A stretch of DNA of 64,000 nucleotides, taken from positions 29,437,611 to 29,501,610 of the forward strand of contig OZ316891.1 in assembly GCA_973895155.1 (NCBI GenBank), read 5' to 3'. Both the position numbers and the translations under genes were made by a program. The notes under the pieces were generated by a model. It worked only from the letters and a program-made list of their open reading frames with translations, searched no databases and was not told where the DNA came from. This stretch comes from Marsupella aquatica. Taxonomy: Eukaryota; Plantae; Marchantiophyta. Positions 4,732 to 64,000 of the stretch are shown here, piece by piece. How positions within the stretch are numbered: position 1 is the stretch's first letter; every line of letters starts with the position of its first letter.

Positions 4732-5064
4732 TAGTAGTATAGATCTCAAACTCAGGGTATTCAAGTTATTGGGGTTACCTAAAAAAGTATTTAGTGAATT
4801 TTGCTTACTTACAAGGGTATTGTGTAGATTTTCACTCCAAGGAAAGGAAAAGTGGTCATTATTTAAAAACAAGGGCCAATCAAAGTACACTAAGGACAAG
4901 CAAAAAAGGTAAGTTGAATCGACACCAAAAGAAGTGGGCTAACGAACCATTACCAAAAGAAGTGGGCGAATGCAAACCAACAAGAAAGGGTACTTTGTAA
5001 CTTTCCAAAATGCAAGTCACAATACCCCATGGCAGCTACAGTGACGAAGGAACCCTAGCTGGTC

Positions 5065-6007: not shown

Positions 6008-6023
6008 TAGTTGGACTGACAGC

Positions 6024-6056
6024 ATGGGATCTCGTGAATTGGCAGGAAAGTATTAG
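6024..6056 (+). other. uORF (MGSRELAGKY*) ending 2 nt before the spatacsin ATG
   Basis: ATG at 6024, TAG at 6054-6056, main ATG at 6059. Confidence 0.5.
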
Positions 6057-6058
6057 AG

Positions 6059-9000: not shown

Positions 9001-12000
9001 TAATGAGCTTGCTCAAGCATCCAAATTGCTCTCTTCTGCAGCGTCCTTCACCACAAGGTTGGTACGTCAGCATGGAGTCACGGGCTGGCAAAGTCCATAC
9101 CAGCAGAAAAGTTCTCATGGATCTCTTGAGTCCAGTAGACACAAGACCGCGGTTACCTTGAGTGAACTGGCACGTTTTCTTGAAGTGATTCGGACCCTTC
9201 AAGTTTGTCTTGAGGAGAAAAGAAAGGGGCCTAATATTAAGAAGGGAGAGAGTGGAAGAGATAAAGCTTTTGTTTCTTTTGAGGACCCAAATGTGAAAGC
9301 TCCGCTAGAAGCAATTGATGAAGGTGTTGAAGAGACAATAGCCCCTTACGTCGTTGTGGAGCAAGGGTCGGGTTCTAAGGTGAAAGCTATGTTATCTGTT
9401 ACTGGGGTCCCTTCGTCAAATGATAGCACTGCCCTTGGCTCACCATCCTCGAGTGCACTGGTGCCAACAGGGAGTTTTAGTACTGGGACTGGAGCCTCTT
9501 GGGATATTTCACCCACTGAAGTAGAGGGAGGAAAGAGTAGGCGGCGGTCTCATATTGAAAGTCCAGGTGAAATGTTCTCAAGGTGGGAGAATGAAAATGT
9601 GGATGCGGCCGGTGTTGTGAGAGATGCCCTCAAGTCATCAGGGCGGTTGGCCTTGGCTGTCGCTCAACTCCAGCGAATGCGCATGATATCTGCAAGGGAT
9701 AATCCTCCACAGGAGCAGGGGGTGGAATCGGAAGACGTCTTTAGTGAGCTTCTCAGGATAGGCCGTGGCATTGTCTATGAACTTTTCTGCAAGGGAAAAA
9801 CAGCTCTAGCAATTGCTGCATTACGGCGGCTAGGAGAAGACATTGAATCTGCTCTTCGTGACCTAGCTCTGGGAACTGTCGGCCGTTTTTTGCACGCACA
9901 AGCTGTAAAAGAATTGCAACGTCTTATGCGTCTGAGCACTAGTGATGTTCAGTTATTTGAAAGAGTTTCACTCATAGAGAAGGAGTATGCAAGTAGTAAC
10001 TTCTGGAGGACATACGAGGCTCGACGACGGCAAGGAGTCGGGGCTTCCCCCTCCCCAGCTTTAGAGTCCAATAGAAATGCTTTGAGTCTTGTGTGCGAGA
10101 TATTTGGAGAAGACGGTTTCAAAATTGAATGTGGGGAAGTTGATGGTGTTGTGCTGGGTTCTTGGAGCATGATTGATGACCAACCAGGGGTCGTTGAAGA
10201 AGAATTGAATTTGCAAGAATCTAATACTTCAGGATACTGGGCGGCTGCAGCTGTCTGGCTTCAACCCTGGGATTCACAAACAGTTGACAAAATACTTTTG
10301 GAGCCCCTTCTTCTCCAGGAGGGGGTGGTCTCATGGGAAGCGAAGTTGGAGTTCCATGTTGCCCACCATAACTGGCAAGCAGTGATACACTTGCTGGAAG
10401 AAGTTCCTTCGTCCGTACAATATGAGGGAATGCTTCATGTGCATTTAGACTCTGATGATACTCTTTCCTATGACCCATCTTTGCCATTCTCCGGTGTCTC
10501 AGACGGCCTTGCAAGAGGAAATCTAAGAAACCCTTGGCTGGGTGATGGAGACACGGGTGAAGCAGTCATACCAAAAGTGCAGATTCTGGCTCTTGACCTA
10601 TCATCTGTGTGCAACACATCAATGTGGCAAATTATAGAGGAGAGACTAGTGAGGAATCACATATTTCTCAAAGAGCACTGGAAGGGCACTGTGGAGTTAA
10701 TGGCATTGTTTTCCAGAGCAGGTTTGCTATTCCACCCGTACAGTTGGGGAAGAAATACCAGAAGCAAAGATCTGATGTTCCCTGGTCCTACGAAGGGGAG
10801 CAAGCTCCACAAGGATGCTGTTTTTGGTTTACATGAGCTGGTTGTGCAGCACTGTCTTAGGCACTCACTTCCACATTTCCTTGAACTTTATTTGGACTTC
10901 CACTCGCTTGCTCTCGATAAAGGTTATTCTACCATTATGCAGTATCTTGTAGGACACTGTAAGTGGGCTCTATGGCTGTTATATACTGGACTTCAACGCC
11001 GTGAATATGATGCATCATTTGCAAATTCTCTGACAATTCTGGCCCCAACAAGGAATTCCAAGGAGAGTGTAGAGGATGTCAACTTTCTGAAGACTGTGGA
11101 TGACATGGCCATAGCTGGAGGAGAAATTATGGCTTTGGCAACCTTGATGTATGCACCAGTCCTGTTGCAAAAGTGCTTGTGTACTGGCCATATCAGCAGC
11201 AGACATGACCGAGGATCATGGCAATGTACACTAGAAAGTCTTCAACCTGGTTTACAGCACTTCCCTACACTATGGAGTACTCTTGTTGGGGCGTGCTTTG
11301 GTCATGACTCTTGGGGATTTGCCTATGGACGACCTTTAAACCCAGGAAGCCCAGGAAGATTAAATCAATATCTTGAATGGCATCAACGGTTGTTCTCATG
11401 TGCTAGGGGTGACACGTCGCTACTTCAGATGAGTCCCACATGGCTTCCACATGGGGTCAGGTACCTCCTCCAGCTTACTATCCGGGGACCTGAACTTAAT
11501 GGAGGTAACATTGATCTGGCCGTACCAACTATAGGCAGTATGGGATCTTATGAGGAGAATTCACAATTGTTGGAGTCTTTGGTTTCCCCCTGGGAGGAAG
11601 GCATTCAGAAAACAATCGAAGAAGAGCTTTATGCTCACAACTCGGAGGACTTGGGCTGGGATTGTAAGCACCATCTTCGTCGGGGCCATGGTGTAGCCGC
11701 ATTCAGCGTGTTACTCAACTCAAGAGTTCAGTCGTCACAAGACTTGAAATCAGGATATGGAAGACTCCATTCATCAGAAATCCAGGCACTTTTCTCACCA
11801 CTCACGGCAGATGAAGAGAAACTCATTGCATCCGTAATTCCTGCAGTCGTGATGGACTATGAAAATTCTACAGTTGTGGCTGCGTTTGCATTATTTGTTG
11901 AACTTTGCGGTCTGTCAGCCAATCTATTGAGAGTTGACATTGCAGCCTTGAGACGTATTTCCAGTTACATGAAGAGCTTGAGTCACTTGAGTAACAATGT

Positions 12001-15000
12001 TGTCACAGTAAGTGGTAGGAGGACAACCTCACCTTGGGACACTCTCAATGAAGGAGGGGGCGATGTAACTGGGTCTCTAGCAGCTGAGTTGGCGGATGAT
12101 TATGTACGTGCTGGAGTGAGTGCATTATCATCATTCAGTGCTGACAGAAGAAATCATGATCGAAGATCTGGAAAATCTTACTCGACCATACAACAGTTGC
12201 TGGAGAAAGCAAGCCTCAAAGATGAAGGAAGAAAGAGAGCTGAAGATGGCAGTCCCGGTGCTTGGCTATTCGATGGGCAAGGGGATGGTTTGCTTTTGAG
12301 AACCATGCAATGGTCAGCTAGTGAGAGCTGGAGTCTTGTTACGGCATTTTGTCGAGCCCATGGTCTTCCATTCAGTACGACGTATCTGGAGATTCTTGCG
12401 AGAGACAATGATTGGGTGGGGTTTTTAGCAGAGGCCCAGCTAGAGGGTTGCCCTCTTGACCTGCTGGTGACAATCGTTTCGAAAGAGTTCACTAATCCTC
12501 GTCTTCAGAGCCAACTTTTATTTGTTTTGAAGAATTTACCAGGAGCTGCTTCAGAGAAGCCAGCTGGAGTTGCAGCTCCGGAGTACAACTCTTTTCTTTC
12601 ACCGAACCTGGAACCCCTTGTTTCCGGCATGAGTGCAAATGCTGAATTGTTTAGCCTTCTGGCAGATTGTGAAGGAAGCAAGCATCCTGGGAAGGACTTG
12701 TTGAGGAAAGCGAAAAAACTCCGGTGGCCTCTTCTAGCTGTTGTGGCATCTTGCTCCACAGATGTCACTCCTCAAGCTTGTTTGACCACATGGTTAGAAA
12801 TTACAGTTGTTAAGGAAGCCTCAGTAACTGAAATCACAGACGCTGCAACGCAATCAACACTGTCAGGCCGCATCGCTGCTGCAGTGGATGCAACAAATGC
12901 CGGAGCAGGTACGGACTCCATAAGTGCATTTAGATACAACCGGACTTCTTCCAACAAGAGACAGCGTTTGTCATCAGAGGACGTTGTAACGGAAGTAGAT
13001 GTAGTCCATGCCGTCCCTGATGGTGGCAATTCTGACCTTACTACGGATGCGCAAGCGTCACAGACGGATGAACGTGCATTCCCAGCTGGACGTCCGCAGG
13101 GTGAAGGTCCATCAGGGGCTGGTGGTGATGGTGGTCGAGAGCAGGAGGAGTCTTTGGCATCTTTGGTAGCTATTCTATGTGAGCAGCAAAGATTTCTTCC
13201 ACTACTCAGAGCATTTGAGCTGTTTACACCAACTTCGTCATTTCTACCTTTCCTCCGTTTCCTCCAGGCCTTCTCACAAATGCGGATCTCAGAGGCCTCC
13301 GCGCACTTAGCTTCTTTTACGGCACGTCTCAAGGAGGAGATGCAGCAAAACAGTAGAAGCATCAGTAGAAGTAGTAATACAACAGCCTGGATAACGAGAG
13401 CTGCGATTGCAGCTGCAGACGCTATGCATGGAGCATGCCCATCAGCATATGAACGTCGGTGTCTTCTCCAGCTACTCTCGGGATCTGACTTTGGTGATGG
13501 AGGCGTTGCAGCTATGAGATATCGCCGGCTGTACTGGAAGATTCAGCTTGCAGAGCCTGCCCTACAAGAGGGGTCCGGGTCGGATCCTGTGACTGACGGT
13601 GCTAACTTGGATGATAAAGCATTGTTTGACACACTGGAAAAGAGTACTCAATGGGAGCAGGCCAGGAGCTGGGCAAGACAGTTGGATCCTGTTCAGAGTG
13701 GATCAGCTCTTCACCGTGTTACCGAGACACAAGCTGAGGCAATGGTGACTGAGTGGAAGGATTTTTTGTGGGATGTGCCTGAAGAGAGAGTTGCTCTTTG
13801 GAATCACTGCCAAGCACTCTTCACTATGCATGCTTTTCCGGCGCTAAAGGCTGGAGAATTTTTCCTCAAACATGCAGATGCATTGGAGCCAGAGCTTTCC
13901 TCGTCCGAGTTGCATAACATACTATTAGTGGCTCTTCAGTGGCTGAGTGGATCAATCACTAATTGTCCCCCGGTGTACCCACTGCATCTCCTTCACGAAC
14001 TGGAGACCAGAGTGTGGCTACTTGCTGTGGAATCTTCTGTAGATGATGAACGGGCTGGGAGTCAAGATGCAAGCTCCTCTCTTGCGTCAATGCGTTCTAC
14101 ACCTGTTGGAGGACTAAGTTATGAAATCTCGGCTGCCTCCCCCATGGCCATGAACTTTGTGGACCGAACAGCTGCTACTGTTTCTATCGTGGACAGCCAT
14201 TTGAAAAGGTCTTCTTCAAATAAATATGATGGAGATGAGGTTGCTCGTCACTGGAGTCAGAGTCCAGAGACGTCGACCAGTTCTTCACCGACAACCAAAC
14301 CCACCACTTCACGATTCAAACGGAAACAGAAGGAGCAACAAGACCAACCAAGGCGGGTTCTTTCTTACTCACCGGAAGTTGCCCCAAGCAATTTAGAAGA
14401 AGCTTTGCAATCAGAAGTAGTAGACCAGAGGGATAATGCTCCAGAAGTGCAAAGGCCTAGGTCTGACAAAGGTCCAACTGGAGAAGAAATTGTTGGTAGG
14501 TGGGAGGAAAGGGTTGGAGACGGAGAAGTAGATCGAGCAGTTCTTACTCTTCTGGAAGTTGGGCAAGTCGCTGCAGCAAAACTACTCCAACAAAAACTCT
14601 CACCAACAAATGTACCCTTGGAGTTTTCATTAGTGGAGGCTGGTCTAAAAGTTGCATCATTGTCTCCATTGACTATCACTGGTTCTGCCGTTTCCTCAGC
14701 CATTCCACCTGATGTGGTAGAGCATCTACAAACGTCAGGGCTTGTTGAAGATGTAATGAGGGTCTCGGCTATTGATATGCTTGAGAAGCTTACTGCAGCT
14801 TGTCGAGAAGGGTGTGGGAAGGGGCTATGCCAGAGAATATCTGCCATAGCAAAAATTGCAGATGTTTTGGGCCTGACTTTCGGTGATGCTTTTGCAAAGT
14901 CTCCAACACAGTTGCTGCATCTGCTAGCTCTAAAAGGTCAAGATTCTCTGGCTGAAGCAAAACTGTTGGTGGCCACTCATCCGATGCTTCCGGCAAGCGC

Positions 15001-16318
15001 CGCACGAATTTTAGCGGAGTCATTTCTGAAGGGCCTATTGGCTGCTCACCGTGGAGGATACATGCAATCCTCTTCCCAAAAGGAGGAGGGTCCTGCTCCC
15101 CTTCTTTGGAGACCTTCCGACTTCATCCGGTGGGCCCAACTCTGTACATCAGAGCCTGAAATAGGACATGCCCTGATGAGGCTTGTGATCAGTGGGCGTG
15201 ACATGCCCCATGCTTGTGAGGTGGAGCTCATTATTTTATCATATCGGTACTATGAAAGATCAGCGTGTCTGGATGGAGTGGACGTGTTAGTAGCCCTGGC
15301 AGCTACACGAGTGGACTCCTATCTTGCTGAAGGGGATTACTCATCGTTAGCGCGTCTGGTGACTGGGATAAGCAACTTTCAGGCGCTCCATTTCATAATT
15401 GATTTTCTGATTGAGAATGGTCAGCTTGAGCTGTTGCTTCAGAAGCGGTCAGCTGTGGATGCTGAACAGGAGTCTTCGGCTTCTATTCGAGGGTTCCGCA
15501 TGGCAGTCCTTTCAGCACTAAAGCACTTCAATCCTGATGATCTTGATGCTTTCGCCATGGTTTACAGCAACTTCAGCATGGCTCATGAAATGGCTTCCTT
15601 GCTGGAATCAAGGGGTCGGAGACTCCCAGAACTGTGGACCAGTAAGCAATTTGACCCAGAGGAGAGCGAGGAGTTCCTGGATATGATGCGCTTTTATGTT
15701 GAAGCAGCTAAAGTGTACTCAGGAATAGATGCAGGGAATAAGACGACGTGGTGCTGTGCTCAAGCATCACTGATATCCCTGCAACTTCGGATGCCTGACC
15801 ATATGTGGCTGAATCTCAGTGATACGAATGCGAGAAGGCTGCTCGTAGATCAACCTCGTTTCCAAGAGTCTCTCATTGTTGCAGAAGCATATGGCCTCAA
15901 CCAATCAGCAGAGTGGGTGCCAGTGATCTGGAATCAAATGCTGATACCCGGGAGAATCGACCAGTTTCTCAATGATTTTGTAGCAGCGTTACCCCTGACA
16001 CATTCAATGCTCATGGAACTAGCAAGATTTTACCGAGCTGAAGTCACTGCTCGAGGAGATCAGAATCAGTTGGATTTCTCCAAGTGGCTCACCCCAGGAG
16101 GAATTCCAGTTGAGTTGGCCCGGCATATCAGCAAGTCATTCAGGGCTTTGTTGAAGCACACACGGGACATGAAGGAGCGGCTACAACTTGCTACGGTTGC
16201 CACTGGATTCCCAGATGTTGTGGAATTGTGCCTCAAAAACATTGATAACATGCCTGTTACGTCAGGGCCGCTCATTCTGCGAAGAGGTCATGGGGGAACT
16301 TACGTGCCCATTATGTAG
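6059..16318 (+). CDS. SPG11: Spatacsin (SPG11 homologue, AP-5-associated), 3419 aa, single coding exon
   Basis: Uninterrupted ORF with motifs typical of plant spatacsins, e.g. LARDNDWVGFLAEAQ, HACEVELIIL...ACLDGVDVL and FQESLIVAEAYGLNQ, and a C-terminal GPLILRRGHGGTYVPIM. Confidence 0.92.
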   Translation: MESSEPEGTGNNVPAVLQLYSWGSRSTELPVSAFARAAFSPSRELLLLQSRDREVILFPLGERISNAGGNITPNPLRSAPPPPSSGSPDLPPAVSSPIFQGIRSRSVSDTAEFASFRHGSSSAAVNPLLQTSPSTSYSNPPQTFKTSSPNSPHTSLYPPPSPSPSLGDVDCFAWASHGDGFGCKGPSGWFKELLFTSNEEGLYIHGFSPKSVAENVKRSRPKAPDGLVGTEETDESTGSDVNGTWREGKWREWQAETTGVASESEFEVWEERNDSSSDRKEGDKRIVSYVVDAELEDSPEGLHLRFDGRNASWPPSADVVSFRFGAGSPFLSRLTSSNSRTASSSSNNNPISSAESSTTGPETEDGLTSEQPRAPAEDSADHHGSIEIVDIISNPSQTLIGIVTCQRSSTAEDSGLQKVSCGGDGGRGLGERNAIDEKKSKLGLMGNTIVSIALALEWGVKWIAAINLDERTTVNEAGTAPWASLVLTNDRLLGLKQDGGIFVWAASIGSLVAFIDLVRYCDLRPSSLLGAKKEIAHETEESGDLQQEKTKSIQTEDESSPHAFLNGESVESAEKETPFSGNFESSVESKESGGHRHRPKRHFTRLVATADSLLLAVTDDQGLLFVVSTDDYFVSQGHHYKSPSTNKKPYICTEDLKALSYWDGAGSDIGRALSTTLLPNRRFLKSLDDETDIHGVHKSVPNTGHKISGGRENGPGPPVHTKNILQSATGFTSRMEVARRGPMNFNKSQVRPIRRVFLPYKSTETLIAVALSFNAITTMVRSIHDGEIFSITQNGLHILDGAIDERDFYGNMARKMEDRVQKRSNYIGDVLPFCSQGFLYLLTASSLHVVLPPLALSQSKSAPSQLNFHEERRYPGFSLETQIGNISFRGQGLLRHPWQTEVVDRALVCDGSEEAELLCLENGWSLQLLHLRRLQLAVDFVRTQDVQQALEALARVGAVESGVLCLLFAAVELMLNQHISDNELAQASKLLSSAASFTTRLVRQHGVTGWQSPYQQKSSHGSLESSRHKTAVTLSELARFLEVIRTLQVCLEEKRKGPNIKKGESGRDKAFVSFEDPNVKAPLEAIDEGVEETIAPYVVVEQGSGSKVKAMLSVTGVPSSNDSTALGSPSSSALVPTGSFSTGTGASWDISPTEVEGGKSRRRSHIESPGEMFSRWENENVDAAGVVRDALKSSGRLALAVAQLQRMRMISARDNPPQEQGVESEDVFSELLRIGRGIVYELFCKGKTALAIAALRRLGEDIESALRDLALGTVGRFLHAQAVKELQRLMRLSTSDVQLFERVSLIEKEYASSNFWRTYEARRRQGVGASPSPALESNRNALSLVCEIFGEDGFKIECGEVDGVVLGSWSMIDDQPGVVEEELNLQESNTSGYWAAAAVWLQPWDSQTVDKILLEPLLLQEGVVSWEAKLEFHVAHHNWQAVIHLLEEVPSSVQYEGMLHVHLDSDDTLSYDPSLPFSGVSDGLARGNLRNPWLGDGDTGEAVIPKVQILALDLSSVCNTSMWQIIEERLVRNHIFLKEHWKGTVELMALFSRAGLLFHPYSWGRNTRSKDLMFPGPTKGSKLHKDAVFGLHELVVQHCLRHSLPHFLELYLDFHSLALDKGYSTIMQYLVGHCKWALWLLYTGLQRREYDASFANSLTILAPTRNSKESVEDVNFLKTVDDMAIAGGEIMALATLMYAPVLLQKCLCTGHISSRHDRGSWQCTLESLQPGLQHFPTLWSTLVGACFGHDSWGFAYGRPLNPGSPGRLNQYLEWHQRLFSCARGDTSLLQMSPTWLPHGVRYLLQLTIRGPELNGGNIDLAVPTIGSMGSYEENSQLLESLVSPWEEGIQKTIEEELYAHNSEDLGWDCKHHLRRGHGVAAFSVLLNSRVQSSQDLKSGYGRLHSSEIQALFSPLTADEEKLIASVIPAVVMDYENSTVVAAFALFVELCGLSANLLRVDIAALRRISSYMKSLSHLSNNVVTVSGRRTTSPWDTLNEGGGDVTGSLAAELADDYVRAGVSALSSFSADRRNHDRRSGKSYSTIQQLLEKASLKDEGRKRAEDGSPGAWLFDGQGDGLLLRTMQWSASESWSLVTAFCRAHGLPFSTTYLEILARDNDWVGFLAEAQLEGCPLDLLVTIVSKEFTNPRLQSQLLFVLKNLPGAASEKPAGVAAPEYNSFLSPNLEPLVSGMSANAELFSLLADCEGSKHPGKDLLRKAKKLRWPLLAVVASCSTDVTPQACLTTWLEITVVKEASVTEITDAATQSTLSGRIAAAVDATNAGAGTDSISAFRYNRTSSNKRQRLSSEDVVTEVDVVHAVPDGGNSDLTTDAQASQTDERAFPAGRPQGEGPSGAGGDGGREQEESLASLVAILCEQQRFLPLLRAFELFTPTSSFLPFLRFLQAFSQMRISEASAHLASFTARLKEEMQQNSRSISRSSNTTAWITRAAIAAADAMHGACPSAYERRCLLQLLSGSDFGDGGVAAMRYRRLYWKIQLAEPALQEGSGSDPVTDGANLDDKALFDTLEKSTQWEQARSWARQLDPVQSGSALHRVTETQAEAMVTEWKDFLWDVPEERVALWNHCQALFTMHAFPALKAGEFFLKHADALEPELSSSELHNILLVALQWLSGSITNCPPVYPLHLLHELETRVWLLAVESSVDDERAGSQDASSSLASMRSTPVGGLSYEISAASPMAMNFVDRTAATVSIVDSHLKRSSSNKYDGDEVARHWSQSPETSTSSSPTTKPTTSRFKRKQKEQQDQPRRVLSYSPEVAPSNLEEALQSEVVDQRDNAPEVQRPRSDKGPTGEEIVGRWEERVGDGEVDRAVLTLLEVGQVAAAKLLQQKLSPTNVPLEFSLVEAGLKVASLSPLTITGSAVSSAIPPDVVEHLQTSGLVEDVMRVSAIDMLEKLTAACREGCGKGLCQRISAIAKIADVLGLTFGDAFAKSPTQLLHLLALKGQDSLAEAKLLVATHPMLPASAARILAESFLKGLLAAHRGGYMQSSSQKEEGPAPLLWRPSDFIRWAQLCTSEPEIGHALMRLVISGRDMPHACEVELIILSYRYYERSACLDGVDVLVALAATRVDSYLAEGDYSSLARLVTGISNFQALHFIIDFLIENGQLELLLQKRSAVDAEQESSASIRGFRMAVLSALKHFNPDDLDAFAMVYSNFSMAHEMASLLESRGRRLPELWTSKQFDPEESEEFLDMMRFYVEAAKVYSGIDAGNKTTWCCAQASLISLQLRMPDHMWLNLSDTNARRLLVDQPRFQESLIVAEAYGLNQSAEWVPVIWNQMLIPGRIDQFLNDFVAALPLTHSMLMELARFYRAEVTARGDQNQLDFSKWLTPGGIPVELARHISKSFRALLKHTRDMKERLQLATVATGFPDVVELCLKNIDNMPVTSGPLILRRGHGGTYVPIM

Positions 16319-39104: not shown

Positions 39105-41000
39105 TCTACCATATACTATATACATGTTATTATTAAGTATAGGGTAATGCAGGTCTGGGCGCAGGGTTACTAGGCTGTACCCTTGCATCCGGAATATGAA
39201 AAAAAGTTGACCGACGGTAGACTATAGGAGCAGGTTACAGACTATAACCCAGCAGCCGGAAAGCTTCTTTGAATATTTCGGGAGCAAGTTACAGACTATA
39301 ACCCCAGCCCTGCCCTGCACGTAACTTTTGCCCAGAAAGAGGTTACCGGTTTAACTTTTCAGGAGAAGAGATTATGACTATAGCATAACCCCAGCCCTGC
39401 CCTACATGTAACTCTTGCCCAGAAAGAGGTTACCGGTTTAACTTTTCACGAGAAGAGATTATGACTATAGCAGGCCCCTGCAAAAATGGTAGGTTACAGA
39501 CTATAACCCCAGCCCTGCCCTGCACGTAACTCTTGCCCGGAAAGAGGTTACCGGTTTAACTTTTCAGAAGAAGAGATTATGACTATAGCAGGCCCCTGCA
39601 AAAATGGTTACACACCGATAACCTCTTCTCCTGACAAGATTTACATACTATAATACAAGGTTGCACCATTTTATAGAGTGGTCATTTTTCAAATTTGCAG
39701 TGTACTTTGAATGACAAACATAAAAACATGTAAGCAAAGATAAGGAATAAAGCAAAAAGAACATTTAATGTAAGGTGAATGAAAATAAAGGGCACGGTTT
39801 CCAAGTGAGATCACACAACACAAAGAAAATGAGGAGTGACTCTATCAATGCACTAGACTTCCCTTTACAAACTCAATAAAAAATGTGAATTAATAACAAC
39901 CCTTTACTAAAAATTTATTCTCCTGACAAAGTCGTCTGATCCATCCATACCCCTTTAAATCTCAATTGCCTCCTGACCAAGATGAAAATATAATTAAAAA
40001 AATTTAATTATTACAATTGGAATTTAAAAAATTGGATATAATTTTTAATTTTAGGAAAAACTTGAATATAAATAATTTTTATTTATTTATATCAATGTTA
40101 ATATACATTTATTTCTATCACTTGGTTGTGCTTGGACCTGCAAGCACTCGATGTTATCTCCCGTCTCCAATTTCTATGTGTAATGCACAGTTTATTGAAC
40201 ATCACCACAACTTTACCTTACCTTGATACCTTTACTCATCTCGCTAGTTTTTTCTCACATTGACATCTTTATCTCACCACAACCATTTTTTCTCACCCTC
40301 AACATTTTTTCTCTCCTGGATATCTTTTACTCATCTTTACATCTTTTTTTCACCTCACCATCTTTTCTCACCTCAACCTCTTACCTTTTTCTCACCTTGA
40401 CATATATATGCATCTCACTGCAACATCTTTCCCTCACTGCAACATTTTTTTCTCTCCCTCACATCTTTTTCTCATCTTAAATCTTTTCCTCGCCTTGACA
40501 TCTCTTTCTCTCATGAATTTCTTTTCACATTGACTTCTTTTCCTCACATCAACATCTCTTCTCTCATTCACATCTCTTCTCTCATTCACATCTCTTTCAC
40601 CTTGACATCTTTTCGTCACCTCAACATCTTTTCTGCAACACACGGGCATTGGGTTGTATAGAATAAAACAATAACTACCCAAAACTTGAGATGTAACCCT
40701 CATTTTCTCAAAGAAAAGGCAGCCAAGCCATTTCGTTGCCCCAAAGGGTCTTGGCATTGGGGCGACCAAAGCCAAGACAGTAAACTTCATGACATCTTGG
40801 GCGACACGACATCATTTTTCTTCACAACATCTTGGGCAACACAATATCTTTTTTCTTCATGACATCTTGGGCAACACAACACGGTTTTCCTTCATGACAT
40901 CTTTTCTCTTCACGATATCTTGGGCGACATAATCTCTTTTTTCTTCACAACATCTTGGGCGACACGACATCTTTTGTGCAACGCACGCGTATTGAGCTTG
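39105..41000 (+). mobile_element. Composite non-autonomous Helitron with several stacked 3' ends
   Basis: Candidate A|TC 5' end (tctaccatatactatatac) at a compositional boundary. Relic 3' ends at ~40180 (gtaatgcacagtttattgaac), ~40634-40656 (tgcaacacacgggcattgggttg) and 40976-41000 (gtgcaacgcacgcgtattgagcttg|t). CT-rich GACATC minisatellites lie between them. Confidence 0.55.
39233..39610. repeat. Tandem ~100-120 bp repeat, about 3 copies
   Basis: ccccagccctgccct.ca.gtaact.ttgccc.gaaagaggttaccggtttaacttttc...gagattatgactatagca repeated three times. Confidence 0.9.
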
Positions 41001-44444: not shown

Positions 44445-45787
44445 CTTGGGACATACTTTGCCTCAATATCTTTGCCTCGACTTGACAAATTTTCTTGCCT
44501 TGACATATTTTTCTCATCTTGACATCTTTTTATCTCCTCAACGACTTTTTATCATATTGACATGTTTTCCCTCCTTGACATATTTACCTCACCTCAATGT
44601 TCTTTCAATCTCACATTGACATCATTTTTTCACCTCAACATCTTTCCTCTCCTTTACACATTTTCTCTCCTCAACATCTTTTATCATCTCAACATCCTTT
44701 TCTCACCTTGATATATTTCTTCTTGACATATTTTCTCTTTGACATCTTTTCCTCACCTCATCATCATATTCTCATTTTCACATTTTTTTCTCTCATGGAC
44801 ATGATTCCTCACCTTAATATCATTTTCTCACCTTGACATTTTTTCTCTCATTAATGTTTTCTAACCTCAACATTTTTTTCTCTCCTCGACATCTTTTTCT
44901 CACCTCAACGTCATTTTCTCATCTCAACATCTTTTCATCTCCTCGATATCTTTTCCTCACCTCAATGTCTTTTTCTCACCTCAACATCTTCTGGGCTATT
45001 TGTATATATATTCTGCCAAAATAATGAGACTTTCACATCCATAAACTATGACAATATTACTATGGTTTTTCACTGCAATTGTCTTACAAAATTTGACTTT
45101 TATCGTCCCAAAGAAAGCCTTGGAAGCAAAACAAAGAGGGGAGAGGCAAGGAGAAAGGGGGGCACATGGATGGGAAAAGAGGGAGGGAGAGGCTTCATCT
45201 TGCCCCTTCCGGTCGCAGGTAAGGGTGGAAAAAGTGTCAAGTTTATTTTCTCACCTCAAAATCTGTTGCTTTATTTTACAGTTTTTTCTGCTCAAAATCT
45301 TTTACTCTCCTTTGCACACGTTTTTCTTCTCAACATCTTTTGTTCACCTAGACATATTTTCTCCCCTCAATTTTTTTTCTCATCTCACCATCTATTTCTC
45401 TCCTCAACATCTTTTTTCTCCTCGACATATGTTTCTCACTTGGACATCTTTTCTCTCTTTGACATCTTTTTCTCTCCTCGACTTCTTTTATCACCTCAAA
45501 TCTTTTCCTCACCTCGACATCTTTTCTCTCCTTGACATCTTTATCACCTTGACATATTTTCTCTCCTCGACATCTTCTATCACCTCGACATCTTTTGCTC
45601 ACCTCAACATCTTTTCTCTCCTCGACATCTTTTATCACCTCGGTATCTTTTTCTCTCCTCGACATCTTTTGCTCACCTCAACATCTTTTCTCTCCTCGAC
45701 ATCTTTTATCACTTCGGTATCTTTTTCTCTCCTCGACATCTTTTATCACCGTGACATCTTTAGTGCAACGCACGGGCATTGGGCTAG
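44445..45787 (+). mobile_element. 3' part of a Helitron with two CT-rich minisatellite blocks
   Basis: Arrays of ctcacctcaacatctttt/ctctcctcgacatctttt, most homogeneous at ~45470-45760. Ends gtgcaacgcacgggcattgggCTAG|T at 45787, identical to the terminus at 4731. Confidence 0.8.
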
Positions 45788-45869
45788 TATAGTATAGTAC
45801 AGATAGGTAGAAATATAGTACAGACAGGTAGATGGCCCATTGTGATGTTTTTTCCTTTTAGTTTCGTTT

Positions 45870-54280: not shown

Positions 54281-55518
54281 AATTATATTGGGTACAGACT
54301 TGTTTACAAATCCGTGGTGTATTGTTAGTATATATATATACTTAGGATGATAAGAGGTGGGTGGTGTTGATGGTTTTTTGTATTATGAAATCTTTGCAGG
54401 CCACCCTATGAGTGGTGCTTAGGGAATCAGAGGTGTTAGAGGATGCCGTCAACCCAGATTTTTGAAGTAGACACAGTGTCTGGGGATCGGGTTCCTGTGT
54501 CATCGTATAGTTACAAGGATGGCAAAACATTTGCAAATGCCAGGAAGAAGTTGGGTACACTGTTTGATTATGACATCCAATTTATTGATGTCAGTCTTGT
54601 CTATAGAATGCTAGAGAAATGGGAGAAGGTCAATCGGTTGGAAGATTGTGGCGGAAAGATCATTGTCATCCGCAAGGTCACCGACGGACCTATGAATGAT
54701 CTTGTCCGTAATGGGCCTACAGGGGTGCCACAAGTCCTAGTGAGCAACAATGCCTCTAATGGACCGACCTGGACAGAGAGTCTAGACTGGATTAATTCTC
54801 CCAACACTGCAGAACCTCATATCCAGGTCGGGATCCAGGTAGACCAGGTTTAGCGTGACATGCTAGCCAGGATCCACGTAGAACAGGTAGAACCACATCC
54901 TATTGTGGCACCACTGCAAGAGGCTGACCCCCACATTAGGTTTGAGTTAGAATTAATGACAAAAGAGGTCAAACGAATCTGGTTGTCAAATGTGGAAAAA
55001 TTGAAGAGTCACATGGAGTTCATTAAATGTGGTCACCACAAATGGAGGGCCAGCACATGGGACAAAGACAACCAGGTCCGTGGGCAACTTGAATGTTTAG
55101 AGTGTGACACTTGTTAGGATGGGTGCGCCAAGGGATTGATGGATAGGACTACCATTAGTAATGCCTTCACCAACTACAAGAGCAAGCACTTGCGTTCAGC
55201 AAAGCATGTATCTCGCGTGGCACAGAACAGGGGTGAGCGAGTTGACACTACGAGATTGCCAGGAGGGCTCAAGCAAATACACTGACTGATAGAGCCACAC
55301 TTGAGCAACATTTGAAAATTGTCGAGAAGGCCAATGAGTCACAAAGAGTCTTGGTTGGGCGGGAGACATTTACAGTCATAGGTGATCAGGAGAAGGAGCC
55401 CTTGCAGCTTCTGAAATTCAAAATTCTTTGCAATTTTTGTATAGACACTCTTACATTGGTCCCAAAGCAACGTAATTTGGAATCCAACCTTCAAACCCAT
55501 ATTGACAGTGGTGGTCAT

Positions 55519-58500
55519 TGTAAGTAGTGGGTAATTCCAAAAGTAGGAAGAAACTGAAAATTTTAAATTTTTTTATGGTGTTTAGACTATAATTATTGCT
55601 AACATAGCGGAGATAGCATTCTGTCTACAAGTTACGGGTTCTCAAGTTTAAGTTTGCGAGTAAACTCTGGTTTACAAGTATACGGGTTTACGAGTTAGGA
55701 CTAAGAGTTATGCCTTACGAGTTGGCGACCAGTGACCGTGATGTTTTACGGCTAGTTTTAACAGGACTCCACAACGGAAGAAGAGCGCGACTTGAAAAGA
55801 AGACAATGTAGACTTGGGCGCTCACTCTTGACTAAATTCCTGCCTCCTCCATTGATTCTATCAGCCTCCCTACTTCTTCGCGCACTCGACAGAACAGATT
55901 AGAGCTATGGCGGACCTCGGCACTGATGAGCAGTATTGTGTCAATTCTTTGCCAACTCCTAAGAGTGTAGTAGCTCAAATTCCTCTGGCGCCCAATAGTT
56001 GTGAAATTTTGAGAACATTGTTACGGCAGCTGGGACTTGAGCATCTACTCGCAATTCCTTGGAATGTAGAGCTCGACACGTATTTACATGATTTTGTGAA
56101 AGGGTCGCTGCTTGCTCCTAAATTTCGACAGACCATTCAAGCTCGACCCAGCTTATGGAATGTGGAGAAAATTTCCCAAGCCTTCCGCTGCCCCTTAGAA
56201 GGAGAAGGATTGTATTCGAAGAAGAAGGATTTGTCAACTCCTTACTTCTTAGGGATTCGCAGTATTACTAATGGCTGGAATCTGACACAATGTACTTATC
56301 CGGATCTGAGAATTCTTCTGGAATTTTTAGTACCCATTTTTCATCCGAAAAAGCCAACCATCTATCCTATAGCTTTGGTAAACACTATTGTGGCTGCTCA
56401 CAGTGGAGCCATCCAGGTGAATTGGGCCTTGTTAATTTTCAATGTGATGAAGGATCAGGTGAGAAGTATAAAGGCAAACAGTCCCACTTATCTGCAAGTT
56501 TATCTATCTCAACTCTACCAGGCTCATGACTGTCTACATCCGGAGGAGAGAACCGAAAGAGGGTTACTTTTGATTGAGTTGGACATTGAGGAAGAAATTG
56601 GTGTGGATGCCATTTCCCTGGATCCCCATGATCAGAATGATGATATGGACATAGAAGATGTGTCAGTGGGTGGTCTTGAAGCTTCGCCTGCTCATAACTC
56701 AAGAGAAGTCAGTGCGGGAGATCAACCTGGAGCTGAAGAAGACAAGGATTTCTTTGAGCAACCAACAGACGTTGTTGAACTGGCTTTTGCTGCTGTCAAC
56801 CTAAGGACCAACTCATCCACTCCTTCGAAAGAAGAATTGAATCAGCAACTCATTGATAAGTTGACATCTCTTCTCAATTGCAGTGGTGATGGACTCTATG
56901 ATGCTGTTAATGATTTAAGAATGGAAGCTGTCAGTTTGAAGTCACCATTCCCTGACCAGTTAAGCCCTATCAGGATGACCTCTCCCCCAAGAGAATCAAC
57001 ACCAACAAAATTTGTGACTCTCACCCGTGCTACCCAACAGGTCCCTCTCCTAAAACTAAGTGACCTTGTTCCAGTGACAGAGGGTATCAGTCGTGCAGCT
57101 ATTGTGGATGAATTACTAGAAATGCTTCAGTGTGAACCTCGACAGATAACATCTGCAGTCAACAACTTAGTGCAGCGATGTCCTACTGCTACACTTTCTC
57201 CTAGTCCAAGTTCCACCCTTACAGTCCTGATTCCAACTACGAACCCACAAAAGGACCACCCTACAATCAGTCACAGTATGAGCATCCTTATGTTTGAGAG
57301 GATCTACCTGAAGATTCTGACCCACCCTCTGATTTTAATTCCATTCGATCTTATGCCAACTCTTTAACACCGTCACCAAGCCAAGGGTTTGAAGATGTTG
57401 ACACTGCCTTAAGATCCAATCCAAACTTAGTAGCAGTCGTCACCTCATCTACTCAGACCCCCCGGAATGTTGTCATCGAGAGTAGATACTTGAGACCTCC
57501 AGAGTTCCAAGTACGCAGGTATGTAGAGACCTGTAAGATTATGCAGGCCAACAAACCACCGGTTGGAGAGTTCTGGAGATACTACTATCTCAAGAAAATA
57601 GAGGCCAGCTACATTTTCGACCTCAGGTGTTTTGGGACTTCCAGAGTGGAGATGGCACAATTTGATGAGTTTTGGACCGACTCTCTCTACTTCCGGCCTA
57701 TTCTTGCTATGATGCTACTTCAAGGTGATGTAGAGGTAGAGGATTCAGATTTAGTTTTGGCATACTTTGGAAACTTTGCAGCCTATGCCTTGGATTTTGT
57801 GGTTTCTTTCCTGATGCAGAGCAAGAAGTCTACTGCTCTACAACATGATTACATCCCTTGAGAACCCAAAGTTACCCTTGTTTCAACCAGTTCATTAGCT
57901 GAGAAACAGAGAATTTGGAACAATGTCACTACTCAGACCCTGACCCACTTCAACTGGTACTTCAGAGATGTCAGATGGAGGCTTTGACCTTTCTATTCCA
58001 AGATGATGAATAGTGATGAGTTCCTGTACCATTATCCCCTAGTATATGCTGCTTCTTGCAACAATTATGATGTAATTGGGATGTATAGAGAAGCTCTTCG
58101 TATAGATTCATGTTATTTAATGAAGAGAATGTCTCTGATCTATCCTGAGAGACAACTAAGATGCCTACCTTACTCCCGAGGATCCCCACGCCAAACTGAG
58201 TTGATGGAGGTTACGCAGAATCGGACTGTTACCCTTGTGGAGTTACTAGAACCAGAGGACATCCGACAGCAAGCTTGAAGAAGTCTTCTAAGTGTTTTTA
58301 GTTAGTTTTAGGAGTAGTGCATCTCATCTGATTTTTATAAATGTGTTCTAGAGTTTTGGAAGCTATCATACTTCTTTAGTATATAGACTGTACCTAGGAA
58401 AGCCTGTTGGCAAAACCTCAGAGTTTTCTGACTCATATTTAGGAAGTTAAAAATAGTTGAGTTTGCTAAGTCTTTACTTTACCGCGATTACGAGTTACGA

Positions 58501-59482
58501 GTTAATGAGTTTACGAGTTTACGTCTTTACGACTTTACGTTTTTACGAGTTTACTAGTTTACGAGTTTACACTTAGCCAATTTTCCGACTTTTCACTTAC
58601 TGAATCGTCATTTTAGCTTTTTGAGAGGGTCGAAGAGGCATGTCTCTTCGACCTTATGACCTCTCACTCTGTAGATTTTTACTTTAAGACCCCTCCACCA
58701 CTAGTGTAGTTTATGGTTAAGTTATGCATTTTTGCCTTTTCCTTGTGTTAAACTAGTTGATCATGAATCTATGAGTTCGAGATCAGGTTTAACATTTGGA
58801 GAGACTTACCTCATTCTTGTGTTTTTACCTATGATTATAAACACAGGAAGTAAAATTCCTTTTGTGCAAATCTTTGGATGTTGTGATGATAGATTCCTTT
58901 TTGGTGATTCATTGCAATCTCCTAAGTTCTTAGAGTTAACTCATTGAGTTTATGTTTTAATGAATTTGATGGATTTTCTTTCGTGTTGCTTAGTACCATC
59001 TAAATGTTGAAGTAGCTACCTTTTAGATTTTATGTGAGTACCACTTAGAAAGAAAGGATAAGACATGTTGATGGCATTTGAAAAGGTACTCTAGTAAGCA
59101 ATTTAGATCTGAAAAGCAAACGTGGATTTGAATCCTAAATCTATTCATTTTGACTTATGATTAAGGAGTGACCTTGGTCTATTCCAGACTCCCTTAGCAT
59201 ACTTTAAGATATTTTTCCCTGTGTTTTTGTTAATCATTCCCTTTTCATTAATTTATGTTTACATGATGCTGAGTTATCATTGAAAATTACTCACCGTTGT
59301 GGAGCGATCTTCAAAATACCTTAGTAAAGTAATCAAACTTGATTACTATGTGTGGAAAACATTTTAAGTCTATTATTGTTGTTTAAATCTATCAAACCAA
59401 CCCCATCTTGTCCTTTACGGGAACGAATACCGAGTTTGAAGACCATTTTAAGTGTGTTTTTGGTTCTTCATAGCAAACTACA
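55519..59482 (+). mobile_element. Element A: 3964-bp TG...CA solo-LTR-like insertion with an internal ORF
   Basis: Begins TGTAAG, ends ACTACA. 5-bp TSD gtcat (55514-55518) / atcat (59483-59487). No gag/pol and no internal terminal direct repeat seen. Confidence 0.85.
55907..58278 (+). pseudogene. Element A ORF (~790 codons), plant transposon accessory-protein-like, with a frameshift near 57200 and later stops
   Basis: 486-aa ORF at 55907-57367 continues in the 57490/58003 frame. Its N-terminal domain (PDLRILLEFLVPIFHPKKP...VNWALLIF...YLSQLY) is homologous to the element B ORF. Confidence 0.7.
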
Positions 59483-60286
59483 ATCATGTTACTTATGTGG
59501 CAAGAAGTCAAAAGTCTGCGAGAGGTGATCCTGTACTGTCAGGACGGCCGGGAAGACCCCATATTGTAGATGGGAGGGATGTGAAACAAAGGACAATCAA
59601 CGGGTTTTTGACCCGGAGTTCGAATCCAGGTGCCTTGAGCAGTTCAGATAGAGGTACCATTGAACCCTTTTCATTGCTGTGTTGGGGACTATGGCGTGAT
59701 GTGGTCAAGGTTGGTGGTCAGACTAGGCCAATCAAGGGAATGTTAGATGATCTCTTAAGAAATGGAGCAATGTGGTCCACAGAGCCTGCTGTGAACCAAG
59801 AGGTCTTGTGTGTGGATAGTGGTAAGCTTTGTACCATCATTGGTACATTTTGACATTCTAACTGTAGTAGGGTATCAGATGAAGGGCTTGGCTTTGAAGA
59901 CCTAACATGTGAGAAGTGTTTTAGCATTACCAAGGAGGAGGACTTTCGAGCACGAGTGCGTAGAGAGTTCAAGGCGCCTGAGAAAAGAGGGACAAGAGGG
60001 ACTGGTAAGGGTCGTCGGATAGGTTACTTAACAGTTTATGAGCTGCACATTCAAGCCAGGACATACAAGAAACGGATCTTGACTATGTAGAGAACAGAGA
60101 GAATGCTTTTTCATAAAGTGGTAATGATGAAGTTTCGGGTCCCAAGTATCAGTGAAGTGTGTCTTCACTATCAAGAGCCTAATAAAGTGTTCAAGTTTTG
60201 CCAATCCATAGTTTTGGCACATAAAAATGGTGCATTCGGTGGAAGAGGTGCTCTATGGGATATGTTATCAGACATAGCTTCTAACC

Positions 60287-63200
60287 TGTGAGATAAGGAT
60301 GTTTGTAAAAGAAGGGTTAACTAACCATAAATTTTAGAATTTTTACGTTTAAGATCTCAAATGAGGCTGAAGAGGGACCTGAAGACTACTTTGAAGTGTT
60401 ATGAGACTTTCAAGCCCATCTGAGGTCAACCCGGATTGATATTAGAGAAGGAGGATCGACCCGGAACTTTTTACTATAAGCCTTGAATGAGATATAAAGC
60501 TTATACCGAGACTCTACTCAACAACAGCTGTCCATTGCCAAAGTTTTTAAAATCACAAGTCAAACACAGGCACGACCACAACAGAATCCGGATATAAGGA
60601 AGGAGAGTCGATCCGGCCTCTCACACCTCTCAAAGCCGAACTTAGTAGGTTTTGAGCTCCCGAGCGCATTAGGCTATTTAAGCAGTAGAGTGAGGAGGCT
60701 CTATCCTTTTGGTAGAGGATCTTGGGTCCGGATTATAGGACCAATCTTGCATTGCATGATGAGAGCCTGGATATGAGGGTACTGACTGATTCATTGTGAG
60801 GGGAATGCCTACTCCACCGCTGGAAGTGAAGGCAGGAAGTTTGAGATCCTGGTCGTGAATACATCGGTTGTGAGAAGGGAAGCCAGGTCAACCCGGACAT
60901 CACCATTGCAGGCCCTATTGAGTCCAGATTTTCCCCACGTTAGATGACCCTGTATTGTGGTTGATGAAATCTTGATGCAATTCTTCCGAAACGATTTTCA
61001 GTTGATCAAAAACGCTGCGGCCAGGTCGACTCAGACATTTCTACCATTGGTCGACACCGAAGCGATTGAATATTCTGAAGTTGCAGAATTGTAGAGCTTG
61101 CCGTAGAGGAGGCAGAACATTTATTGGAAATCAATTTGTTACTTCCAGAAATCCTATGGAGCAAGGGGCGGATCCAGCCGGAATGTCCACTTCTCGCGTC
61201 TCTAAGGGGCATTCAACCTCAACATCACCTGCACCTACTCCGGTTAAAGCCCCTGTGAGACGATCGAAGAGAAAAGAGGTCCCCATTGCCATGAAAATTC
61301 TGAGGCCAGCTATTCCGGACAGTGAAGCTGAGAAGGTCAAACTGAGGGAGTCTTTGCTCAGGATGGGCTGTGAGTCTCTGATGGAGCTACCCTGGAGTTA
61401 TCAAAGCAAAGATATGATCAAAGAGATCCGATCCAAGGAGTATCCGGCTGAGTTTAAGGATACCTCCAGAGGCCGACCTGAGCGATGGACTCAGATGATG
61501 ATTGCAGGAGATTTTGTATTGGAAGATGAAGGAGAAGGTCCAGTGGGGAGAGCTGTCAATCTAATCCTTCCTTACTTCAAAGGAGCCATCAACAGTAAGG
61601 ATGGGTTCAATGTTTCTAAGTGTTTGGATCCTGATCTGAGACGAGTCTTCAGCTTTCTGCTACCCCTGCTGTACCCTGAGAAGCCAAGAAGAGTTACTGT
61701 TGGAGTTGGCTCTACCATTGTTGCTGCTTACAAAGGAGAAAGAAAAGTCAACTGGGCTAAGCTTATCTTTGATTTGATAAGGAAGTTGGTACAGAACCTA
61801 TCCAACAAGAGTCCTACTCCCCTCTCCTGCTACCTGGTACATCTATATAGCTTTGAAGGAGTCTTGTTCAGAGAGGAGAAGAAATTACTATTGGCCAAGT
61901 TCAACTTCATAAAGTATGGAGAGATAGATTCAGATATCACCCAGGCCACCTCTGATGACAGTGAGGATGAGGAACCAACAGAGACAAATCCTCGAAAGAC
62001 CCGGTCTGCTGCCCGGAACCTCGACCCGGACTTTGCCGACCCGGCCTTCGTCGACCCGGCTGAATTTCCGGATGCACCCGGCCATGCCTCCCTAGACACC
62101 CTAGTTGATTTCCAGATCATCTCAGACACATTCTAGAAGGTGAAGAGGAAGACCACTGTGATGGAGAAGGCCATCACTGATATTTCTCAAAAGTTAGGAG
62201 TGAAACCAGGGCAGATTCTTGAAAAGATCTCCACCATGAGTGATGCCACAGATAAGAGGAAGTTGGAGAAGGAGAATGAGTTCCTCAAGAAGAAGGTATC
62301 TAAACTCAAACAACAGTTGGAAAGGAGTAAGAAGAAGAATGAGCTTGAGCATACTCTCCAACTCAGTATCACTCAATCTTTGGATCTGATTGAGCCTTTG
62401 ACTAAGATAGCTTCTCTGGATCTTCTTAAGGCCCAAATTTATGATGAGTATTTGGCCAAGAACACCACACCCATCCTTTTCTCCAAGATTAACCATTTAG
62501 TGGTAGATGTGAGTACCAAGATGGATGATGCACTTACGAGTCTCTCAAAGACCTGTGAAGCCTTAAGGGAGATGAGTGACTTGACTACAGAGGAGCTATT
62601 AACTGATATTGAGATTCCTCCCTTTACTACCAGATCTTTCTCTCCTAGTCCTCATGAAGGAGTCTATTCCACTGGCCCCTCATCACCCCTCAACCCTCCT
62701 GGTTTCCCCACTCCCAGTACACACTTCCACTCCCATTCTTACACTTATTCTCATGACCCAAGTGCCCATCAGGAGAACATGGATATTGACCCGTCCATCC
62801 CTTTTACCACTGGCCAGCAGGAAGTTTTCCTTCGACCAGAACCCCTTGCCATGGCTAACCCTGAGGAGGTTCCTTCCCAAAAGCCAGGACCAGAATAGAG
62901 TTATATTTAGAGAGTTAGAGCCACATTAGTTTAAACTTAGAAATAGCTATATAGATTAGTATATGAGTAAGTAGACTCCAATATTTTGTTGATGTATCCA
63001 TTGGAGACTCTACTCCATTTTTGACTAGGATAGTTCACTTTTATTTACATATTTCTTTAGACTTGGGTTTTGAAGAGGCATGTCTTTTCATAATCTCCAC
63101 TTTTAGTACAAAAGGAGGAGAACCCAAAGTCAACCTTGAGAGAGAAAATATACATTTTGATTTCCTCATTGTCTTTAAAGGAATCTATGTCTTTTCTTCC

Positions 63201-63887
63201 CTTCTTTTTACCATGGTTGAGTAAAAGGAAGAAGTTTTAGCAACCCTTGAGTTGTTGTGAAGTGTTCAATGAATGCTAGAGTGTGCCTTAATGATATTGA
63301 AAGATCAATGAGATTTGTGATCAATACATTTGGAAGATTCACCAAAGAGGAAATTGACATTTACATAGAACTCAAACAAACAATCTTAAGGATTGTAGGA
63401 GAAGTAAACCAATTCGAGTATCCTAGTACCGTCTTAAGCAAGACCAAAAAAGTGTCCCGGGTTGATTTACATTGTTGTCTTCTAAATTCAATAGATGGAG
63501 AAGAGTTGCTACGAGAAATCAAAAAGTATAGAAAATGTTGATTTCTGAATCTTAAATTAGGCCATAATCCTTATTGAAAGAGTGGTGATGGTCAGAAATT
63601 CAATTCCCTTGCACTTTGAAAACTCCTATCAACTCTCTCTCTAGTTTCAATCTTTATTAATTCTAGTCTTTATTATTGCACTGTGAATCCTAAGGATTAC
63701 CCACTTGAGTTTGTGGTTAAACACTTATGTTAAAGAGATCATTAGAAATCTCTCCAACCTAAGAATGTTGGTGTAAACTTCTCAAATCGTGTTAATTAGG
63801 TCTTTTCGATCTTATCCACTCCTAACCGGAACGAAATCGAGTTGTTAAGGAGTAAATAGTCATTTATCTCTTTATCACCTTGCTACA
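60287..63887 (+). mobile_element. Element B: 3601-bp TG...CA solo-LTR-like insertion with an internal ORF
   Basis: Begins TGTGAG, ends GCTACA. Perfect TSD taacc (60282-60286 / 63888-63892). No gag/pol and no internal terminal direct repeat seen. Confidence 0.9.
61156..62898 (+). pseudogene. Element B ORF (~580 codons) with a single in-frame TAG at 62134-62136: conserved N-terminal domain, acidic linker, coiled coil
   Basis: ORFs 61066-62136 and 62140-62898 are in the same frame. Motif PDLRRVFSFLLPLLYPEKP...VNWAKLIF...YLVHLY and a K/E-rich heptad segment. Confidence 0.75.
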
Positions 63888-64000
63888 TAACCTAAACAAG
63901 AGCAAGGAGGGATATAGGTTTAAGCCAGGGACAAAGCTTTTGTGCCAGATACTATTCTTGCATGGTGGTCGGCGCATTGTTGATTGCCTTGCGAGTAATG

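Follow-up and report, generated by a model that had tools for sequence, protein, structure and literature searches.

Close to the right end of a 64,000-nucleotide stretch of Marsupella aquatica DNA (GenBank assembly GCA_973895155.1, contig OZ316891.1, positions 29,437,611 to 29,501,610; hereafter the window), two units of 3.6 to 4 kb interrupt one host open reading frame (ORF), and the question they raise is how a sequence bounded like a long terminal repeat (LTR), with no gag or pol inside it, comes to hold a gene. An initial annotation had proposed that the units, elements A and B, are LTRs with an accessory gene inside the repeat. We found a gene inside the LTR to be the most likely reading: A and B are probably solo LTRs derived from Athila-like Ty3/gypsy families whose LTR reached 3.6-4 kb by incorporating the gene, a reading to which we assign a probability of about 0.55. 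It builds on observed ends, duplications, empty sites and repeat status, on the lack of a second repeat and of gag/pol, and on links to a complete retrotransposon relative (L001, from a metagenome) and to a family of CACTA elements. The insertions and their target are located in the window as follows.

55514..55518, + strand: left target-site duplicate of A, GTCAT (sequence; empty-site join)
55519..59482, + strand: element A, probable solo LTR with a gene, 3,964 bp, TG...CA (ends, self-comparison, empty site, depth)
59483..59487, + strand: right target-site duplicate of A, ATCAT (sequence)
60282..60286, + strand: left target-site duplicate of B, TAACC (sequence)
60287..63887, + strand: element B, probable solo LTR with a gene, 3,601 bp, TG...CA (ends, self-comparison, empty site, depth)
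63888..63892, + strand: right target-site duplicate of B, TAACC (sequence)
54440..64000, + strand: decayed host ORF, insertion target of both A and B, unclassified (frame; Pfam)

Element A begins with TG at 55519, directly after GTCAT, and ends with CA at 59482, directly before ATCAT, so that its duplicate matches at four of five positions (one mismatch); B begins with TG at 60287 after TAACC and ends with CA at 63887 before TAACC (5/5). Both insertions therefore have the TG...CA termini and the precise 4-6 bp target-site duplication of solo LTRs. When each element was removed together with one duplicate, the + strand frame of the host ORF was continuous over both sites. Empty sites and read depth were taken from contigs of four public runs (X1, X2, X3 and X5) from three studies, one of which may be the source. 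A join skipping 3,606 nt (3,601 + 5), the empty site of B, was present in contigs of X1, X2 and X3, and one skipping 3,969 nt (3,964 + 5), that of A, in contigs of X1 and X2; X3 contigs contained a close-by join near A (55502 to 59484), and neither empty-site join was seen in X5 contigs. The ends, 5-bp duplications and restored host frame of the initial annotation are thus confirmed. Terminal inverted repeats of at least 10 bp were absent from A and B, which have just 3-4 bp (TGTA/TACA and TGT/ACA, respectively). A likeness between the start of A and the end of a CACTA element was dismissed because the empty site fixes the insertion boundary. As the left and right ends of A and B both align colinearly, the two are, on this alignment, separate insertions of common descent, which agrees with the earlier view of two independent elements. 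None of seven pieces of the host ORF had a Pfam match; it contains a C2H2-like motif, and its C terminus includes a stretch that we take to recall P-element-like transposases. In run X1 extra depth was observed over this ORF, and some contigs joined 60285 to 63904 with other letters between.

No second terminal repeat was found in A or B by self-BLAST, local alignment against shuffles or a repeat finder, as the initial annotation had held, and the self-comparison it had proposed showed no short LTR at both ends of either element; the sole repeat was an 8-bp motif array in A. The gag, protease and pol of a relative gave no tblastn match in the window at E ≤ 0.1, in line with the earlier claim that gag/pol is lacking. 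Both elements therefore resemble solo LTRs in their internal content as well. What they do contain is one long ORF each.

55907..58278, + strand: broken ~790-codon ORF of A, ATG at 55907, stop at 58276-58278 (translation against relatives)
55937..56587, + strand: conserved N-terminal domain of A, predicted VANC21-like fold (structure comparison)
61156..62898, + strand: ~580-codon ORF of B, first ATG at 61156, stop at 62896-62898 (translation)
61276..61932, + strand: conserved N-terminal domain of B, predicted VANC21-like fold (structure comparison)

The sizes given earlier for these ORFs (~580-790 codons) hold, but neither is intact: A is disrupted by a frameshift near 57214-57247 and by stop codons at 57295, 57859 and 57985, and B by one internal stop at 62134. 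Both copies are broken and presumably inactive. Intact 808-amino-acid (aa) relatives of the A protein exist (P0003, P0155 and P0156), of which P0003 is 62% and 73% identical to it in the two halves. The domain that the initial annotation had seen in both proteins was borne out, at 33% identity over 214 aa (E 2e-36). In B it is followed by an acidic stretch and a coiled-coil-like part. A second conserved region was observed in the C-terminal part of A (57500-57813; 30% over 106 aa against P0101); its occurrence in P0101 and its lack of detection in B suggest that C-terminal modules are exchanged within the family.

Scanning metagenomes yielded 125 pattern matches, of which 35 were confirmed as loci of relatives (L001-L035). 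L001 is a circular 10.7-kb contig (123-bp overlap) in which a Pfam scan identified reverse transcriptase (RT), one ribonuclease H (RNase H) stretch, integrase and a Ty3 capsid, the protease ORF having no Pfam match. Its order, gag-protease-RT-RNase H-integrase without an extra RNase H or a chromodomain, is that of Athila. Pol is followed by a polypurine tract at 3753-3770 with GG after it, the family ORF (4222-6450; 31-33% aa identity to A and B in the domain), the same tract again at 6556-6573 with TG after it, a 991-bp LTR ending in CTACA, and an Athila-type primer-binding site (PBS). The tract is thus duplicated on either side of the accessory ORF, with TG after the downstream copy only. 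The LTR limits were set from these signals in the one copy present. The PBS, TGGCGCCGCTGCC, has one mismatch to that of Athila, TGGCGCCGTTGCC, and lies 11 nt from the LTR compared with 3-6 nt in Brassicaceae (10.64898/2026.03.20.713144, in the part of that source available). Because the tract with TG, the LTR and the PBS all come after the ORF, the ORF of the L001 family is placed outside the LTR. Parents with such a layout were what, according to the initial annotation, would make A and B ordinary deleted elements; the layout was found in L001, which belongs to a different family. AGCGCT arrays were observed in L001 before the ORF, in the ORF, in the LTR and before gag.

The other 34 loci form one family, 92-96% identical in DNA over the ORF. 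The CACTA left end CACTACTACA was present in 22 of them, with 15 distinct flanks, and L004 (9100-13660) contains a full 4,561-bp CACTA unit, CACTACTACA...TGTTGTAGTG, with AAA flanks and subterminal TCGCAA arrays. No further ORF of at least 200 aa, and hence none of transposase size, was found in this unit. A pol fragment 5′ of the ORF in L030 was rejected as part of the unit, as it belongs to another element hosting the CACTA copy. The layout of A and B occurred in none of the 35 loci, and scans of viral contigs (three alignments, the L001 RT region and a 19-nt end motif) and of prokaryote genomes yielded no relative.

Short motifs accompany the gene in A and B as well.

55626..55723, + strand: loose TTACG(A/G)G motif cluster of A, 5′ of the ORF (self-comparison, repeat finder)
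58487..58598, + strand: tandem array of the 8-bp unit TTTACGAG in A, 3′ of the ORF (repeat finder, shuffles)
59420..59436, + strand: subterminal motif of A, common to B (motif search)
60429..62080, + strand: CCGG-core motifs of B, scattered and clustered, before and inside the ORF (motif search)
63098..63122, + strand: T-run and purine run of B, 3′ of the ORF, no TG after (sequence; comparison with L001)
63828..63843, + strand: subterminal motif of B, common to A (motif search)

ACCCGG has nine copies within B. The subterminal motif GGAACGAA..CGAGTT, already noted near both right ends in the initial annotation, occurs once per element, and none of 100 shuffles reached even one match. The purine run of B itself (63110-63122) qualifies the earlier statement that no polypurine tract is present, which stands insofar as no TG follows; with the T-run, it is possibly a vestige of an inner polypurine tract. 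A 26-bp near-palindrome was observed in A (58628-58653), part of which, GAAGAGGCATGTCT, recurs in B at 63072-63089; in both elements it lies some 815-850 bp from the right end. Short joins in run contigs from 55600-55690 to ~58540 (sides of 25-29 nt) were not taken as a deleted form of A, as they follow from an 8-bp motif common to both places.

At E ≤ 0.001, a two-sequence profile of the protein matched 574 of 1.84 billion representative proteins; word-index protein searches returned 0, 2 and 2. The family is described here from 150 listed of the 574 matches, among which are intact members of 600-810 aa. Of 30 clusters checked for annotation, three have a name and one an organism, the liverwort Calypogeia fissa. 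Intact relatives lie on contigs of 3.4-3.9 kb, like the unit in size; these may be transcripts or fragments and were not counted as support. A match to PF20167 (Transposase_32) was weak, at 11.7 bits against a Pfam gathering cut-off of 45, and appeared at E ≤ 0.1 in two of 54 family members (best 0.014). In the ESM Atlas the domain adjoins PF20167 and PF03078 (ATHILA) clusters (B scoring 0.86 and 0.85, P0003 0.91), a similarity we treat as a lead. The best structural match of the predicted domain was VANC21/VANC6, over ~197 of 217-219 residues at 10% identity, so that the predicted structure has the VANC DNA-binding fold. No sequence match to DUF1985 or PMD was found in the search with B or among the 25 of 33 families listed for 54 members, and Foldseek gave nothing at E ≤ 0.001 against PDB and BFVD. 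Profile searches of PDB sequences returned just acidic and coiled-coil noise, located outside the domain, and 9lnk was absent among the best 60 of 85 PDB-sequence profile matches. The highest Kyte-Doolittle 19-mer was 0.66-1.73 in ten sequences, one exceeding 1.5 (no dedicated transmembrane predictor was run); the accessory protein, without a clear membrane segment, is likely a soluble DNA-binding protein.

On the predicted fold, the gene likely encodes a VANC-like DNA-binding anti-silencing protein. Four candidate protein-motif pairs were recognized (TTTACGAG, ACCCGG, AGCGCT and TCGCAA); in shuffle tests the arrays of A, B and L004 scored 0/50 and those of L001 a borderline 3/50, while 2 of 14 control pieces passed too. 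It is about an even call whether the protein would bind its family's own short CG-containing arrays and, in the manner of VANC at VANDAL transposons, prevent methylation of the family and sustain its expression. A somewhat smaller, still considerable chance is that a VANC/PMD-fold protein binds DNA or chromatin for another job, as a transcriptional activator of the family, an aid to the particle or to integration, or a TnpA-like binder of ends in its CACTA host. TnpA binds subterminal motifs of CACTA elements, and the motifs of the CACTA family here are subterminal. A common fold by itself proves no function, and PMD proteins, which have this fold, act against Polycomb and not against DNA methylation (10.1101/2024.09.27.615353). 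For VANC and its targets, however, the pattern on record is one of short family-specific arrays next to a VANC-fold gene (PMC5735166).

Whether the whole 3.6- to 4-kb unit is the LTR was judged mainly from depth and from the ends. The ratio of depth over the B ORF to that over the host was 33, 19 and 225 in X1, X2 and X3, a rough sign of a repeat family and not a copy number; X5 was excluded because its depth was low (0-84) throughout. Depth over the last ~1 kb of B was 0.74-0.86 of that over the ORF in the three runs, which argues against a separate short LTR, as this would give a ratio of at least 2. Neither element has an inner copy of its left end, and in B, which diverges from deep family contigs by only ~1-2% (5/429, 2/299 and 6/333 differences), this too speaks against a short LTR. 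At the left, A and B can be aligned beginning with base 1, and the alignment of the sequences 3′ of their ORFs outscored 60 of 60 shuffles. The L001 segment that runs from the upstream tract to the end of the LTR (3,794 bp) agrees with A and B in size, in the order of its parts and in where the motifs lie, and the first 60-80 nt of A have their best L001 match directly 3′ of that tract. No gag-pol parent of A or B was found among the 35 loci or in the viral and prokaryote scans, and none of the copies observed had a PBS or polypurine tract past the unit ends. Several results weigh against a gene inside the LTR. The match of A to the tract region is marginal and is not displayed by B, and the 3′ part of neither element matches the L001 LTR above shuffles. 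The 5′ 1.7 kb of A are ~5-fold shallower than its end, and in one run its last kb had 1.58 times the depth of the 3′ half of the ORF. The only complete relative, L001, has its ORF outside the LTR. An LTR-retrotransposon origin with a self-contained accessory gene, as first proposed, is supported.

It is improbable that A and B arose by deletion or recombination from ordinary L001-type elements with a ~1-kb LTR and an internal ORF, a sliver of the 5′ LTR being joined to the region 5′ of the ORF and followed by the 3′ LTR. L001 has this layout, the post-ORF lengths are similar (1,204 bp in A, 989 bp in B, ~1,114 bp in L001), B retains a purine run 3′ of its ORF, and the shallow 5′ half of A would fit; A and B nonetheless lack an internal copy of the left end, the depth of B does not rise over its last kb, and independent deletions would not yield left ends that are colinear across families 33% alike in protein.

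A similarly unlikely explanation is a self-standing class of single units copied whole, with integrase or transposase supplied in trans and no two-LTR stage. Standard reverse transcription cannot regenerate a unit without a PBS and two R copies. The flat depth of B, the lack of a visible parent, the same gene family in a 4,561-bp CACTA unit without a transposase ORF and the precedent of Revolver, a 3-kb TGT-ended gene unit related to the LTRs of large retrotransposon derivatives (LARDs; PMC2851119, available portions), suit this class, but the inverted repeats of A and B are merely 3-4 bp and their ends and layout match the segment from tract 2 to the LTR end of a true LTR element.

For the solo-LTR reading, we consider the following first step fairly probable. 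An L001-like ancestor would have had the order pol, polypurine tract 2, accessory ORF, tract 1 and short LTR. Standard LTR replication copies the segment from tract to U5 to both ends; were plus-strand priming and the integrase end to shift to tract 2, the ORF and the old LTR would be copied to both ends, everything from the upstream tract to U5 would become terminal repeat, and the inner tract would decay. The opposite direction, with the long LTR first, is possible. Recombination of two such LTRs would then leave one copy between the original duplications, and an intact solo copy would be a stand-alone cassette of the gene and its own target sites.

Elsewhere in the window, a single uninterrupted 3,426-codon ORF occupies 6038-16318; we take it to resemble spatacsin/SPG11, which usually has many introns. 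A fragment at 3-887 seems to resemble the restriction-like endonuclease found C-terminally in non-LTR retrotransposons. Degenerate tandem repeats form four related tracts (66-81% alike) at 4020-4740, 40200-40670, 44460-44990 and 45240-45800.

In the literature searched (subscription papers and supplements lay outside it, and several sources were available in part), neither this family nor a plant LTR carrying a gene of this kind was described, and no VANC-fold protein was reported from Athila or CACTA elements; Repbase or REXdb may already contain these families. A plant LTR with a full 580-800-codon gene would alter what solo-LTR formation removes and would account for such units being missed by tools that expect LTRs to be non-coding and 1-2 kb long. 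The fold match provides a testable function, motif binding and anti-silencing, for a large protein family as yet without a name and, on grounds of similarity, for the accessory ORFs of Athila, as well as several natural protein-motif pairs for the study of how specificity evolves. More tentatively, and with considerable doubt, we suggest that Athila-like elements of early land plants carry a VANC-type anti-silencing gene, which some families moved into the LTR by a polypurine-tract switch. If so, every solo LTR would be a cassette with gene and target motifs, the host's main route of purging retrotransposons would leave the family's shield behind, VANC-like anti-silencing would be far older and wider than dicot MuDR elements, having served CACTA elements too, and the long-unexplained 'env-like' ORF of Athila would gain a function.

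Coding sequence within an LTR is known from sag of mouse mammary tumor virus and from lentiviral nef, which overlap U3. The analogy with sag drawn in the initial annotation extends to position at most, since the protein here has no clear membrane segment and a predicted VANC21-like fold; sag and nef are vertebrate-retroviral and unrelated, in contrast to a likely soluble DNA-binding protein. The likeness to Athila (Ty3/gypsy, non-chromovirus OTA) lies in the sense ORF 3′ of pol and the Athila-type PBS of L001, called Athila-like by gene order and PBS, and in the PF20167/PF03078 similarity, which is below the Pfam cut-off. In the available parts of the works cited hereafter, a 3′ ORF of sunflower Athila matches PF20167 and has a nuclear signal (PMC11728184), and accessory ORFs of plant LTR elements, including those described for Athila, lie in the internal region (PMC7264820; PMC6317226), unlike the ORFs of A and B within a single TG...CA unit. 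VANC21/VANC6 of VANDAL (MuDR) elements, with the PMD/MAIN fold, share with our family the fold, a coiled-coil-like part after the domain and short motif arrays, but identity is 10%, and VANC has been described as dicot-specific (PMC13547354), whereas these genes are carried by LTR-type and CACTA elements of apparently non-flowering plants. In size the units are comparable to the LTRs of Ogre (>5 kb), BAGY-1 (4.2 kb) and Retrosat2 (>3.2 kb), for which many solo LTRs are known (PMC1142308; PMC3485330); no 580-800-codon gene within these LTRs is described there, and the extra ORF of Retrosat2 lies 5′ of gag-pol. A 2010 review stated that a gene-encoding LTR had not yet been identified (PMC2851119). 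Among precedents for genes in LTR-like units, the closest is Revolver of rye, a single unit of ~3 kb that starts with TGT, carries one DNA-binding-like gene and has ends related to LARD LTRs (PMC2851119); compared by description only, it differs from A and B in its 20-bp imperfect terminal inverted repeats and its spliced gene.
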